DNA of 19,576 bases from Escherichia coli (GTDB lineage Bacteria; Pseudomonadota; Gammaproteobacteria; Enterobacterales; Enterobacteriaceae): assembly GCF_003334765.1 (NCBI RefSeq), contig NZ_QOWT01000051.1. One strand, given 5' to 3'. The notes below the pieces were generated by a model. The model saw nothing but the letters and a program-made list of their open reading frames with translations. It was not told where the DNA came from and ran no database searches. Within the stretch, counting starts at the first letter, position 1. Each line of letters opens with the position of its first letter. Positions 8,483 through 13,280 of this stretch are shown here, in pieces. The translations under genes were made by a program, and so were the position numbers.

Positions 8483-9340
8483 TCAGGGGGAAGCTGTGGC
8501 CAGCCGGCTGTAATTGCGGTTACGCGACAGAATCATGCGCTCCTTCACACGACGCTCCACTTCACGTTTTACCGCCTCACGACTGGCAGTGAAGCGCCCT
8601 TCCGAGATTTCACGCGTCAGCTGTCGTTTCACCAGGGTGACGATATCCTGACGTTCCCTGCCCGCATCACGACGCGCACGGGCACGCTTTATTCCCCGGG
8701 ACTTAAGCTCTGTCTGGTAACTGCGGAAACGCTCACGCACAAAACGCCAGGCTTTCGCTATCAGTTCATCCATACCCAGGGTATCCAGCCCCTGCTTTTT
8801 GCGCTGTTTGTTTTCCCATACCACACGGCTGCGGCGCGCAGCTGCCACTGCATCCTCAGACACATCAAGGGCGGCAAACAGCGCCAGTGTGAACGTGATA
8901 TCGGTCGGAATGTAGCACCCGATAAGCGGGTCATATTCCGTCTGGTAGGTAATCAGTCCCAGCTCTGACAGGGACGTCAGGGCCCGGGTGGCCCGGGTGA
9001 TGGAGAGTTTTCCTGCACCGGACTCTGTCGCCAGTCCGCACTCAATGGCCAGCGTGGTGATGGAACACTGGACGCGGTTGGCCAGCGGGTCATAATGGAA
9101 ACACAGCCCCTGCAGCAGCGCATCAATAGCCCGTCGACGCAGCACCGGTGGCATGCGTCGACGCAGACCACGCGAACGGGCATGCGCCACATGAATAGCG
9201 AAATCAAAACGGGAGCTGAAGCCCACCGCTTTTTCCATCAGTTTTTCGCAGAACTTCAGCGTTCCGGCACCTTCACGGGGTGTGAACACCGGATTCGGGT
9301 TCTTTACCTGGCGGTAATACGTTTGGTGAAGATCAGTCAC
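8483..9340 (-). CDS. repA1: IncFII replication initiator RepA1
   Basis: Near-identical to the recalled R100/R1 RepA1 ([40 protein letters not shown]...[12 protein letters not shown]). The likely start is the GTG giving MTDLHQ (285 aa); the track ORF 8483..9352 begins four codons earlier. Confidence 0.95.
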
Positions 9341-9407
9341 ACCATCCTGCACTTATGTTGCACAGAAGGAGTGAGCACAGAAAGAAGTCTTGAACTTTTC
9401 CGGTCAT
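9333..9407 (-). CDS. tap: RepA leader peptide Tap (repA6), translationally coupled to repA1
   Basis: 24-codon [27 protein letters not shown] whose TGA overlaps the repA1 GTG start (GTGTGACTG); size and position match the IncFII tap peptide. Confidence 0.6.
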
Positions 9408-9418
9408 ATAACTATACT
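9390..9418 (+). promoter_or_regulatory. CopA antisense-RNA promoter
   Basis: -35 TTGAAC, 17-bp spacer, -10 TATACT, directed opposite to repA mRNA. Confidence 0.55.
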
Positions 9419-9425
9419 CCCCGCA

Positions 9426-9511
9426 TAGAGCAACAGCTTCTATGCAGTTTCTTGTTAGCCCCGGTAATCTTCTCTTAGTCGCCAAACCTGGTGAAGATTA
9501 TCGGGGTTTTT
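9426..9511 (+). ncRNA. copA: CopA-like antisense RNA (copy-number control)
   Basis: About 85 nt from the predicted start to an intrinsic terminator: long stem CCCCGGTAATCTTC/GAAGATTATCGGGG followed by TTTTT. Lies in the repA leader between copB and tap, antisense to repA mRNA. Confidence 0.6.
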
Positions 9512-9566
9512 GCTTTTCTGGCTCCTGTAGATCCACATCAGAACCAGTTCCCTGCCACCTTACGGC

Positions 9567-9578
9567 GTGGCCAGCCAC
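9567..9578. promoter_or_regulatory. Candidate CopB operator at the repA promoter
   Basis: Inverted repeat GTGGC-ca-GCCAC between copB and the CopA region, where CopB is known to repress PrepA in IncFII plasmids; exact promoter elements not resolved. Confidence 0.3.
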
Positions 9579-9644
9579 AAAATTCCTTAAACGATCAGTA
9601 ATCTAGCACTAATCTTCTGAACACTCAAGAATGTAAGCCCATCA

Positions 9645-9899
9645 TCACATGCATCGTTTTTGCGCTTCACTTTTTATCAGTGCGGTCAGAACTTCAGCCT
9701 GGGTCAGGCCATCTTCATTACACATTTGCATGAGCATGGCCTTATACTTTGGTTCGAGAAATACTTTTACTTCCTTGAACGAAGCTCTTTTACGGGCCAC
9801 TGATAATCTTTGTTTCTCTGCATCAGAAAGCGGATTCCCCTTTCTGTATGCTCGTTTTGCGCCAGATGAGGAAGTCACTGTATTTTCTGTCTGCGACAT
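9645..9899 (-). CDS. copB: Replication regulatory protein RepA2/CopB
   Basis: 84-aa ORF MSQTENTVTSSSGAKRAYRKGNPLSDAEKQRLSVARKRASFKEVKVF..., matching recalled IncFII CopB; upstream of the copA/tap/repA1 cassette. Confidence 0.9.
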   Translation of the reverse strand: MSQTENTVTSSSGAKRAYRKGNPLSDAEKQRLSVARKRASFKEVKVFLEPKYKAMLMQMCNEDGLTQAEVLTALIKSEAQKRCM

Positions 9900-10078
9900 C
9901 TCGCCTCCTCAATACTTAAACAGGGATCGTTTCGCAGAGAATACTACAGTTTTTTGAAATCAGCGACTTGAAAGTTGTGACGATGATCTGTGTTGGCGCA
10001 CAAATCATGTCTGATTACGACCGTTTAATGTAATTTTGATAATAAAATGACTGAAAAGTAGGAAATGCTTTAACCAGG

Positions 10079-10110
10079 GTACCGGCCCCGGGCGGGACCG
10101 GCAGTTTCTA
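10079..10110 (-). terminator. 3' stem-loops of the hok/srnB-like mRNA
   Basis: Downstream of the toxin stop on the minus strand: hairpins GGGGAC-ggaa-GTCCCC and CCGGTCCC/GGGGCCGG. Could be terminator and/or fold-back structures of a hok-type mRNA. Confidence 0.3.
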
Positions 10111-10195
10111 GCATTTCGGGTGTCTGCCCCTGAAATACCTCACACTTCCGGAAAGCGGGGACTTCCGTCCCCGCCCGGCAGCTTACTTCCGTGCT

Positions 10196-10330
10196 TCAGG
10201 CCAGAGTTACCTGCACCACTGTATTTCCCCTGTGAATATTCAGTTCACATAACTGTTCCCTGAATATCAGTGAAAAACACAACACCGTGGCGCACACGGC
10301 AAGCAACCCGATAAGGGTATATTTCGTCAT
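10196..10330 (-). CDS. srnB: Hok/Gef-family type I toxin (SrnB-like), C-terminally shortened
   Basis: 44-codon ORF MTKYTLIGLLAVCATVLCFSLIFREQLCELNIHRGNTVVQVTLA, close to recalled F-plasmid SrnB. The canonical C-terminus LAYEARK is replaced by an early TGA; restoring 2 nt (CTGGCCT-AC-GAAGCACGGAAGTAA) would recreate it. Below the ORF-track length cutoff. Confidence 0.75.
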   Translation of the reverse strand: MTKYTLIGLLAVCATVLCFSLIFREQLCELNIHRGNTVVQVTLA

Positions 10331-10335
10331 AAACT

Positions 10336-10365
10336 TTGACATCTTTGCAAAGAAGAGGCTAGAAT
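10336..10365 (+). promoter_or_regulatory. Promoter for a Sok/SrnC-like antisense RNA
   Basis: Near-consensus -35 TTGACA, 18-bp spacer, -10 TAGAAT on the strand opposite the toxin, overlapping the toxin start and firing into its leader; the RNA 3' end was not located. Confidence 0.5.
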
Positions 10366-11150
10366 CAGTAGTGCATCATGCAGACCTCACGAGTTAATGG
10401 ATTAACGAGTGGGGTCTTCGCATTTCTGAAACCTGCGTCTTATTCAGCCATTCTTCGGTCATCTGCAGCAGTTTTCTTGCATCGTGACTTCTGAGCAACG
10501 GAATGCCAGCCTGCCTCAGAACCTCTTCCAGAAGAGTATCCCAGCATCTGCGTTCCGAACGTAAATGACTGTCATCAGCCAGCTATACTGCTGCAACAAT
10601 ACTGAACGAACGCCGTTCAACGATAACCACATCGACATGCACTGAGATACCATCCTGAATAACTGCCACCACTGGCGCGATCAGATATTAGTTGTCTGGA
10701 GATTCAGGGGACAACCTAACTTGAGCCCGCTATAGCGCGAAGCCGAAAATTATTGTTCGTATGCTCCCGCTGGTCCAGAATGGGAATTCCCTCTGGCTGA
10801 TGTTGAACTGTCATGGAGAATTGAAACTTGTTTAAGACTTTGGCAGCCTACTGTTTTTAATACACCCAATAAGGTATGAAGATGAAACTAGGGAAGTTAA
10901 TACCGCCATGAAAAGATAAATAATACCCGTGGAATATATTTCCTCATGTTACTCTCCATATCAAATAAATGGCACCTGTATTTCAGACATCCTGAATATT
11001 ACAGCACACATTGAACAACACCTTATTTTGTGAAATTAATCACAAAATATAAAATCACGACTTAATACGGAAAAAACTCTGTGCTACTCAGAACTGTCCG
11101 GTCATACTGCCCGACCGGATATTAAAAAAAGCAAATCTCATGCATTATTC

Positions 11151-11195
11151 AGCCTTCTGAATCCCTGGAGTAATGAAGGCTGCTTTTTTCGTTAC
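11151..11195 (+). terminator. Intrinsic terminator-like hairpin
   Basis: Stem CAGCCTTC/GAAGGCTG with a 17-nt loop followed by CTTTTTTC on the plus strand, after an AT-rich region with no convincing ORF. Confidence 0.3.
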
Positions 11196-11413
11196 ACCCT
11201 TCCCCGGCTGCGCCGGTGGCAGTGTTCAGCCCTTTTTCGGGCAAACTGCTGCCAGTCTGTCCGGGGCGCAACACCGGCAGCCCGTCGCCATGCTTCTGCC
11301 GCTTCCATCCAGCGTCCACTGACCTCCAGAATAACGGCCCGGCTTCCGGCACGCTGCCAGCGCCAGACCTGACCGTTCCGTGAACTGTTTCTGAATCCAT
11401 TCATCTTTATCAC
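11192..11413 (-). CDS. Hypothetical small protein downstream of finO
   Basis: 73-aa ORF (MIKMNGFRNSSRNGQVWRWQRAGSRAV...) in the position of the small conserved ORFs found downstream of finO in F-like plasmids; overlaps an alternative-frame ORF at 11149..11400; no recognisable motif. Confidence 0.3.
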   Translation of the reverse strand: MIKMNGFRNSSRNGQVWRWQRAGSRAVILEVSGRWMEAAEAWRRAAGVAPRTDWQQFARKRAEHCHRRSRGRV

Positions 11414-11535: not shown

Positions 11536-12096
11536 TTATTTCTCATCAAGCACGGCCTGAAGTTCTGCCTTTATCCGGTTCTGGCGGCGGATTTTATCCA
11601 GACGCGCTGCGGCATACGCTTCCTCCTCCTGAGAAATATGCTCCGTCACATACCCTTCCGTGTCATACCGGCAGGCACCGGCTTTCATGGCACACAGATA
11701 GCTTTCTGAACGGGTGATGGCCTTCAGCGCCCTGCGCAGTTTTTTATGCGAGAGCGGGATATTCCGCTGCGCCACGTCTTCCAGTAACACGTCCCGGATA
11801 CCGCAGGCCAGAAGCCGGGGCGTGTCACCGTCAAACAATCCCGGCCACCAGGGTTTCAGGGTATTCACGGCCTCATCCAGCGTGGGCAGGTTCAGATAAA
11901 TGGACAGTGCCTGTCTGGCCTGCGCTTTTTTTGCCGCCAGCTCTGCTTCCCGGGCTGCTTTCTCGGCCAGCTTCTGCTTTTTCACCTTCCACTTTGGTGG
12001 CGTGGTGACATTGATGATGGTTTTCCGGCTGCGGACAGGCGTCTCCCCTTCCGTTTTCCGCTTCAGTGTCAGTACCGGTCGCTTCTGCTCTGTCAT
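11536..12096 (-). CDS. finO: Fertility inhibition protein FinO (ProQ/FinO-family RNA chaperone)
   Basis: 186-aa ORF essentially identical to recalled F/R100 FinO ([50 protein letters not shown]...). Confidence 0.95.
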
Positions 12097-12150: not shown

Positions 12151-12500
12151 TCACAGCGCCAGAACGCCCAGCACAGCCAGATGACAGGCGTAGAATACCG
12201 GGAAAAAATCCCCGGGCCAGAAACGGGGTAATGATTTTCCTGCACACGACACCAGACCAACGGTCAGCACCGTCATCAAAAGACCAGCCACCGCCGCTGC
12301 ATCACTGGTGGCAAGGTTAAGCGCCGGAATAACAGCCAGCAGGCAGGCGACCAGCGCCAGACGTTCCGCTCTGTCTTCCGCCCGGTACAGCCGGTGGCTG
12401 ACTGCCAGCATCAGCAGCCCGGCAATGCCGTAACTGGTGCCGGACAAGGGCCCCCACAGGGCCATCAGAAGAATGGCCGCTGCTGTACGCCACCCGGTCT
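12151..12500 (-). pseudogene. traX: traX 3' fragment (pilin acetylase), 5' part deleted
   Basis: Encodes GWRTAAAILLMALWGPLSGTSYGIAGLLMLAVSHRLYRAEDRAERLAL...FYACHLAVLGVLAL, matching the C-terminal 115 or so residues of F TraX. The frame is entered without a start codon at about 12498, where it abuts the traI fragment. Confidence 0.85.
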
Positions 12501-12951
12501 ATCACATAGCGGTCATGACTGCGTGTCTCCGGGTTCCACTGCTCCATCACCATCCCCGGACGGTACATATCCCGCAGATAACGGCTCCGGCTGTCCAGCC
12601 AGACCGGTGACAGTGCAGTCATGGTCACCTCAGGGTGTCCGAGCACGCCCTGCGTTTTCAGCTCACTGCGAATGGCCTGTGTCAGTATGGCCTGTTCCCG
12701 TACCCCGCTGACCTGTGCCACGCTCTCTTCTCCGGCTTTCACGCTGGCCGCAAAATCTCCGGCCAGCCGGGCATAGCGGACATTACGGTCCGGTTCACTG
12801 ATGATGGTGGCCGGTCGCTGTTCTCCCCCCTGCCAGCGATATGTGTTCACCCCGGCATCCTTCATGGCCATCAGCGCACTGCCTGTACCGGTTCGCTGCC
12901 CGCTGTCGGTTATCAGGACCTGTACGTTATGACGTGCGGCACCATCCAGCC
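12501..12951 (-). pseudogene. traI: Internal fragment of relaxase/helicase gene traI
   Basis: In-frame segment ARHNVQVLITDSGQRTGTGSALMAMKDAGVNTYRWQGGEQRPATIISEPDRNVRYARLAGDFAASVKAGEESVAQVSGVREQAILTQAIRSELKTQGVLGHPEVTMTALSPVWLDSRSRYLRDMYRPGMVMEQWNPETRSHDRYVIDRV matches recalled F TraI. Both flanks of track ORF 12317..13129 are out-of-frame read-through. No relaxase N-terminus and no oriT. Confidence 0.7.
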
Positions 12952-13280
12952 GGAATGATGCCACGCTCTGCCAGCATGTTGAGTGCTGCCAGTCGGCGAC
13001 CACCTGCGGCGACACCGTAACGGTCACCAGGCAGGGTATGCACGACCAGATTCTGCAACAGGCCAACGCCCTTAATGGACTCCGCCAGTTCGCTGACGGA
13101 CTCTGCGGAATACGGCACCGTGCGCACATTCAGCGGTGATTTAATCAGTGAAGCCAGCGGCACACTCACTTCCTCCGTCTGCGCCAGCAGGGCAGACAGG
13201 ACTGTTTCCTGCGTTTTTACAGATTTAAGGCTTGCTTTGCGGGTGGTTTCTGGTTCACACTTCGTTACAGGCATAATCAT
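12952..13280 (-). pseudogene. 5' fragment of a ParB-like nuclease-domain gene (F leading region)
   Basis: Track ORF 12927..13280: ParB/Srx-type N-terminal domain (GLLQNLVVHTLPGDRYGVAAGGRRLAALNMLAERGIIPA), then non-homologous residues and a stop right at the junction with the traI fragment. Full-length homologs are much longer. Confidence 0.6.

Follow-up and report, generated by a model that had tools for sequence, protein, structure and literature searches.

A degenerate srnB/srnC toxin–antitoxin allele beside the IncFII replicon of an Escherichia coli plasmid

The srnB/srnC locus and its plasmid setting

The DNA analyzed, hereafter the window, is a 19,576-nucleotide stretch of an E. coli contig (NZ_QOWT01000051.1). 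On its minus strand, blastn comparison with plasmids F and p417H-90 delimits a 5'-truncated segment homologous to srnB/srnC at 10037..10441. From 10441 to 9901, the window is 92.9% identical to F and 91.5% identical to p417H. The edge of the module at ~10036/10037 was located against R100-type plasmids, which do not carry srnB. The first-pass annotation had placed the locus at 10079–10440, in good agreement with the homology, which runs from 10037 to 10441. The segment is orthologous to the srnB/srnC of F-like plasmids and occupies the same conserved site, with the finO region on one side and the IncFII replicon (copB/repA2, CopA, and repA1) on the other. In F also the module lies upstream of copB/repA2, and gene order is identical in annotated relatives. 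Judged by its sequence, the locus is a degenerate allele of the known srnB/srnC type I toxin–antitoxin module of F-like plasmids. The srnB/srnC genes of F, in the RepFIC region, were reportedly described by Akimoto and Ohnishi and, in 1991, by Nielsen et al.

The full IncFII replication control region is present at 8483-9899, with the IncFII RepA ORF (8483-9352, minus strand), the CopA antisense RNA (9425-9515, plus strand; Rfam, 91 bits), and the copB/repA2 regulator (9645-9899, minus strand). On the other side of the module lies FinO (11536-12096). Between finO and a DUF2726 remnant described below, AS-pc02 ("Antisense to pHK01_099"; 11111-11295, plus strand) gives a full-length Rfam match of 214 bits (E = 2e-56). 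Beside finO, positions 12151-13280 hold only short ORFs, adjoining a ParB-like leading-region ORF; as related plasmids annotate traX and traI at this position, the transfer operon appears to be mostly deleted there. CP088797.1, the closest full match to the 391-nt locus, is typed as non-mobilizable. A second addiction module, of type II, is found near the replicon, in the form of a RelE/ParE-family toxin ORF (7020-7567, minus strand) with an antitoxin-like ORF upstream; a 3'-5' exonuclease ORF (6093-6974) adjoins it. An ORF for a GntR/MocR-type PLP-dependent regulator (239-1537, minus strand) is adjacent to the ORFs of cytochrome bd-type ubiquinol oxidase subunits I and II (1817-4227, plus strand). 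This region (239-4227) is plasmid-borne and is common to CP057477.1 at 98.9% identity. The right end of the window (17013-19314) carries IS66-family ORFs encoding a transposase, a TnpB-like protein, and an accessory protein. A search with the whole window returned no single plasmid matching it over its full length.

When a hok-family locus is functional, its toxin mRNA is stable but kept inactive by pairing between a 5' element, tac, and a 3' element, fbi. The mRNA refolds upon 3' trimming, and ribosomes translating a leader ORF are then led to the toxin start. Access to the ribosome-binding site (RBS) of the leader is blocked by an antisense RNA that is short and unstable. When the plasmid is lost, the antisense RNA disappears first and the cell is killed.

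Lesions in the toxin arm

The minus-strand ORF 10196..10342 encodes MSKFMTKYTLIGLLAVCATVLCFSLIFREQLCELNIHRGNTVVQVTLA. From the canonical toxin ATG at 10330, it specifies a truncated SrnB of 44 aa ending in TGA (10196..10330; stop codon 10198-10196); an alternative in-frame ATG at 10342 would give 48 aa. In tblastn, the ORF is 95.5% identical to F SrnB over 44 aa (E = 1e-25). It is assigned to the Pfam family HOK_GEF (PF01848) with an E value of 5.8e-9, residues 9-47 aligning with positions 2-40 of the 42 in the model. The kinship with hok-family loci proposed in the first-pass annotation is borne out by both results. Reference peptides of PndA, HokE, HokA, HokB, and Hok are more distantly similar to the ORF. 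A search with SrnB and these same peptides revealed no second hok-family gene in the window. The scores against the NCBIfam models NF007290 (HokA, 34.1 bits) and NF007279 (Hok family, 24.9 bits) are below the cut-offs of 89 and 73, but the canonical 49-aa SrnB likewise falls under them (32.9 and 31 bits), so these cut-offs are non-discriminating. The protein is identical to RefSeq WP_023144756.1, a "Hok/Gef family protein."

Where F (NC_002483) and p417H-90 read GCCTACGAAGCACGGAAGTAA, the window reads GCCT--GAAGCACGGAAGTAA, with a 2-nt deletion (AC) between 10198 and 10197. The deletion creates a TGA stop directly after VQVTLA, and YEARK is consequently lost (44 instead of 49 aa); putting AC back restores the LAYEARK* end. 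Alignment with F and p417H thus agrees with the initial description of a toxin that follows SrnB through VQVTLA, stops five residues short, and regains LAYEARK upon insertion of 2 nt. The periplasmic C-terminal tail of Hok/Gef proteins, with its A-(Y/C)-E motif, is incomplete, the ORF stopping exactly at the position of the Tyr codon (Hok Y48). This periplasmic C-terminus was proposed as the toxic domain of Gef/HokC, according to a passage of PMC8509063 citing that work. In R1 Hok, the substitutions M46I and Y48N and C-terminal extensions all lead to loss of killing (PMC9841398). Conversely, the E49A substitution leaves Hok toxic, toxicity was seen for 42 of 45 diverse Hok homologues tested, and whether a peptide is toxic is not predictable from its sequence (bioRxiv 10.1101/2025.08.07.668861). 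Because of this unpredictability, the case for a dead toxin rests mainly on the lost expression signals and not on the truncation.

The comparison set comprised 14 truncated-lineage sequences and 22 canonical alleles. Of the latter, 18 could be parsed by script, 12 of them with a readable leader. As the sampled loci had been chosen by exact protein identity, conservation of the ORF is uninformative in this set and only the non-coding variation is informative. The toxin Shine-Dalgarno (SD) region is mutated (10340..10346, minus strand). It reads AAAGATG in the window, whereas the 18 parsed canonical alleles have (A/T)G(A/G)GAGG, 9 nt before the toxin ATG, so that relative to the canonical sequence GAGAGG has become AAGATG.

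The residual mok-like leader ORF, ATG ATG CAC TAC TGA (10365..10379, minus strand), encodes MMHY* and does not reach the toxin start, its stop lying 34 nt upstream of the toxin ATG. It ends after four codons because of an 8-nt deletion between 10375 and 10374, flanked by GCAC repeats when set against the closest parent allele; this deletion accounts for the interrupted leader frame that had already been noticed. The SD of the leader, GTGAGG (10385..10390, minus strand), lies inside the target hairpin complementary to SrnC, a hairpin seen in the fold of the F mRNA. In the 12 readable canonical alleles, the leader either spans 68 aa in the frame of the toxin or is a 19-aa ORF overlapping the toxin start by ATGA. 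These two forms (loci L003, L005, and L019-L038) differ by a 1-nt indel. Their presence in both canonical and truncated alleles suggests that the leader matters for delivering ribosomes to the toxin start rather than for the peptide it encodes. The stop 34 nt short of the toxin is restricted to the sub-lineage of the window. The parent sub-lineage has a 63-aa leader that shares the reading frame of the toxin and reaches its start; by this feature, the presumed decay is less complete there.

The largest lesion, a fusion at the 5' end, had escaped the first-pass annotation, which based its case for decay on the 2-nt and leader differences, both of which stand. Homology to canonical srnB breaks off abruptly at 10441. 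Immediately upstream, alignment and PGAP identify the 3' fragment of a DUF2726 (yihA-type) gene (10442..10682, minus strand), a pseudogene that is 92.6% identical to the 3' part of the DUF2726 gene and that PGAP describes as frameshifted, with an internal stop and a missing N-terminus. In R100-type IncFII plasmids, the DUF2726 gene stands directly upstream of copB and srnB is absent. A three-way alignment yields a clean junction at 10441/10442 (...GGCTGAATA/AGACGCAGG...). The fusion falls at ~+31 of the mRNA, and DUF2726 sequence stands in place of the srnB promoter and the initial ~30 nt. As the homology ends at 10441 with DUF2726 sequence upstream, the locus has lost its native promoter as well as tac and the 5' strand of the first hairpin. 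The canonical TGGTATTAT promoter region is absent and with it a promoter proper to the toxin mRNA. Among the 22 sampled canonical alleles, 21 keep an extended -10-like TGGTA(T/C)TAT and the 5' end GCGGGTGTCTGAGCCTTTCTGG (GGCGGGTGTCTGAGCCTTTCTGGTTCAGGC). No promoter-like site was detected on the minus strand between 9900 and 10700. Substitutes for the promoter or for tac upstream of 10441 were sought by promoter scan, by a search for fbi complements, and by folding, and none was found.

In the minimum free energy fold of the F mRNA, nt 1-12 (tac) pair with nt 356-372 (fbi, CAGACACCCGAC), and nt 18-24 form a 5' hairpin with nt 42-48. The window has kept the fbi element CAGACACCCGAA (10115..10126, minus strand) without its partner. 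In the 19.6 kb, the only complement of fbi is its own opposite strand, and in folds from seven candidate upstream starts fbi never paired with a 5' end. In silico, tac being deleted, the tac-fbi pairing is thus missing from the window. Among the other loci, L025 (GCA_013076035.1 contig) shows a compensatory pair of changes, GGCGGG to GGCAGG in tac and CACCCG to CACCTG in fbi. The 3' GC-rich hairpin of the srnB mRNA, CCGGTCCCGCCCGGGGCCGG (10082..10101, minus strand), forms in the F mRNA fold, and 16 of the 18 parsed canonical alleles carry it with the same spacing to the toxin ATG. It is absent in L024 and L027, two canonical 49-aa alleles with CCGGTCCCCTGGCTAAGG in place of CCGGTCCCGCCCGGGGCCGG. 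L027 is carried by a 4.9-Mb contig, and the loss of the hairpin suggests a separate decay in a chromosomally integrated copy.

The antisense gene and the distribution of the allele

On the plus strand, the srnC promoter TTGACA-18-TAGAAT (10336-10365) agrees with the consensus at 11 of 12 positions. It is the only site with at least 11 of 12 consensus positions in the 19.6-kb window, and shuffled sequences contain on average 0.14 such sites. At the same position, the parsed canonical alleles all have TTGACC-18-TACAAT. A single G-to-T substitution accounts both for the loss of the toxin SD and for the change of the antisense -35 box from TTGACC to TTGACA, the two signals sharing this base pair. 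The near-consensus -35 box is therefore a by-product of the substitution that destroyed the SD.

The predicted SrnC antisense RNA (10372..10432, plus strand), whose start was deduced from the -10 box, has the expected layout, a hairpin (10378-10423) separating a short 5' tail from a trailing AUUUCUG. It folds with -21.8 kcal/mol (z = -4.4), and the hairpin sequence is invariant across seven aligned sequences representative of the lineage. At the sequence level, a promoter followed by a terminator-like hairpin overlapping the leader RBS makes up a cis-encoded antisense gene. The early suggestion that the opposite strand carries a promoter of the Sok/SrnC type is in keeping with the consensus score, the canonical position, and the Sok-like hairpin downstream. 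Since this promoter and hairpin have been kept, transcription of SrnC probably continues. In the window sub-lineage, the leader deletion shortens the 5' single-stranded tail of the predicted RNA by 8 nt. According to Thisted et al. in 1994, the 5' tail of Sok is said to be the first contact site with the target. In a permissive Rfam scan, RF01794 (sok/hok-leader) reached 17.6 bits (E = 0.16), below its gathering score of 59. We took this match, whose proposed 5' end (10529) is inside DUF2726-derived sequence, as probably due to chance. At gathering thresholds, Rfam retrieved AS-pc02 and CopA only, with no match at the srnB/srnC locus.

Alternatively, the remnant might be kept for its antisense RNA. 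Transcribed from an improved promoter, SrnC might act as an orphan antitoxin, neutralising the srnB mRNAs of competing or co-resident F-like plasmids, so that the host would survive their displacement (anti-addiction). The lineage-specific change from TTGACC to TTGACA brings the -35 box to the consensus, while promoter spacing, hairpin, and tail are intact. By inspection, the predicted RNA agrees with canonical SrnC over ~52 contiguous nt, which should allow it to pair with canonical srnB mRNAs, and such targets are very common in the host range, an srnB-like locus being matched in 2018 of 5426 complete E. coli genomes. However, the -35 change is the very nucleotide that destroys the SD, which makes selection on srnC unnecessary to explain it, and the 8-nt deletion has removed most of the SrnC 5' single-stranded tail in the window sub-lineage. 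We regard this protective role against rival srnB as unlikely; it is the only mildly novel possibility that the locus offers.

The truncated allele is common in sequenced IncF plasmids, real but ordinary. A 91-nt stretch around the 2-nt deletion is found with at least 99% identity in 389 of the 2786 matching PLSDB plasmids. The 10441/10442 junction is present in 364 plasmids and the 8-nt leader deletion in about 18 PLSDB plasmids. Among complete-genome records of E. coli, 418 fall within the identity bands of the truncated lineage, and 40 reach at least 99% identity to the 391-nt locus. The 44-aa protein occurs on more than 1000 contigs and in 6963 index blocks, compared with 28525 blocks for the F-type 49-aa protein.

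The truncated lineage is nearly clonal, with low divergence. AAAGATG replaces the SD in all of its alleles, and the junction, the SD change, and the 2-nt deletion occur together in every sampled member. Conversely, the 8-nt leader deletion and the change of the -10 box from TACAAT to TAGAAT are found only in the window sub-lineage (the window, L001, L008, L014, and L017). Independent indels were observed in L011 and L016, whose 3' UTR lacks 24 nt and whose leader lacks 1 nt. L018 has an extra 15-nt deletion at the junction.

Decay of the killing function

Four lesions are seen in the toxin arm. Through recombination or deletion, a DUF2726 fragment was fused at ~+31, eliminating the promoter together with tac and the 5' strand of the first hairpin. 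The SD mutation is the second lesion, and the third is the 2-nt deletion, which ends the peptide at the conserved Tyr position (Hok Y48). Only in the window sub-lineage, a fourth lesion, the 8-nt deletion, ends the leader after four codons. From these features of the sequence, we infer that the toxin is not made and that the locus no longer kills. Deep mutational selection of R1 hok has shown that substitutions destabilizing the tac stem abolish killing, as do mutation of the mok start codon and premature mok stops upstream of hok (PMC9841398). By analogy, each of the four lesions is of a kind that would suffice to inactivate the toxin arm.

Several observations speak against decay and for a killing system that is still active and would make a shorter toxin from read-through or cryptic transcripts. 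Apart from its truncation, the 44-aa ORF is undamaged in thousands of assemblies, PGAP calls an intact gene, and HOK_GEF is matched up to position 40 of the 42 in the model. The allele is abundant, as the 6963 index blocks attest, an in-frame ATG is available upstream at 10342, and the leader of the parent sub-lineage is fused in frame with the toxin, as in the 68-aa form of F. Read-through from the region of finO, the ANR-family regulator, and DUF2726 could still supply an mRNA. Nevertheless, the promoter, tac, and the toxin SD are lost, and in the window the leader is cut as well; in R1 hok, each of these kinds of lesion abolishes killing on its own (PMC9841398). Moreover, the peptide ends at the Tyr whose substitution inactivates Hok. 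Continued killing by the shortened toxin appears very unlikely in the face of these losses. Short indels can be artefacts of sequencing or assembly, an alternative left standing by the first-pass annotation. For the 2-nt and 8-nt differences, such an origin is practically excluded by the recurrence of the same allele in hundreds of independent assemblies (389, 364, and 18 plasmids, 40 records, and more than 1000 contigs).

We consider it likely that the locus is a decaying srnB/srnC module on an IncF plasmid, in which the toxin arm is dead and SrnC is probably still transcribed. The attenuation suspected in the first-pass annotation is upheld, with lesions beyond those it listed, whereas its suggestion of chromosomal fixation does not apply to a locus carried by an IncF plasmid beside the IncFII replicon.

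With F srnB/srnC, the window shares the position and spacing of the antisense promoter, the target hairpin, fbi, and the 3' hairpin. It differs from F in the absence of the promoter and of mRNA nt 1 to ~30 (tac and the first hairpin arm), in its SD (AAGATG for GAGAGG), and in its toxin devoid of YEARK. The leader has 4 codons in the window and 68 aa in frame in F, and the antisense promoter boxes are TTGACA/TAGAAT instead of TTGACC/TACAAT, with a predicted SrnC 5' tail 8 nt shorter. The hok loci of the E. coli K-12 chromosome were reportedly found by Pedersen and Gerdes in 1999 to be inactivated by IS insertions or other lesions. As in those loci, rearrangements and point mutations would here have abolished killing but left toxin ORFs and antisense genes recognizable. 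The K-12 loci are chromosomal, whereas the locus in the window is plasmid-borne and would have been inactivated by a 5' deletion or fusion and small indels. The R1 hok/mok/sok system belongs to the same family by Pfam HOK_GEF, the window toxin being 36% identical to Hok over 36 aa. R1 and canonical srnB share their architecture, with a leader ORF, an antisense RNA directed against the leader RBS, and pairing of the 5' and 3' ends. They differ in that R1 mok is a 70-aa out-of-frame ORF (PMC9841398), whereas the srnB leader is in frame with the toxin or overlaps it by ATGA. Our literature search yielded nothing specific on the truncated allele, on its decayed state, or on srnB in ST131-type plasmids, and the pEC958 paper does not mention srnB.

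The 44-aa ORF is labeled by annotation pipelines as an intact "Hok/Gef family toxin," but it should not be counted as an active killer. About one in every six or seven srnB loci in public plasmid data belongs to the truncated lineage, and inventories of toxin–antitoxin systems on IncF resistance plasmids probably over-count active killer modules in this lineage. Should the orphan antitoxin role of SrnC prove true, a widespread IncF lineage, comprising hundreds of sequenced plasmids, would be resistant to one layer of the competition between plasmids. Nothing here alters the understanding of hok-family systems, of which srnB/srnC has been known since the 1980s-1990s. What this allele would provide is a clear plasmid-borne case of stepwise decay of a type I toxin–antitoxin module, in which a single nucleotide is common to the toxin SD and the antitoxin -35 box.
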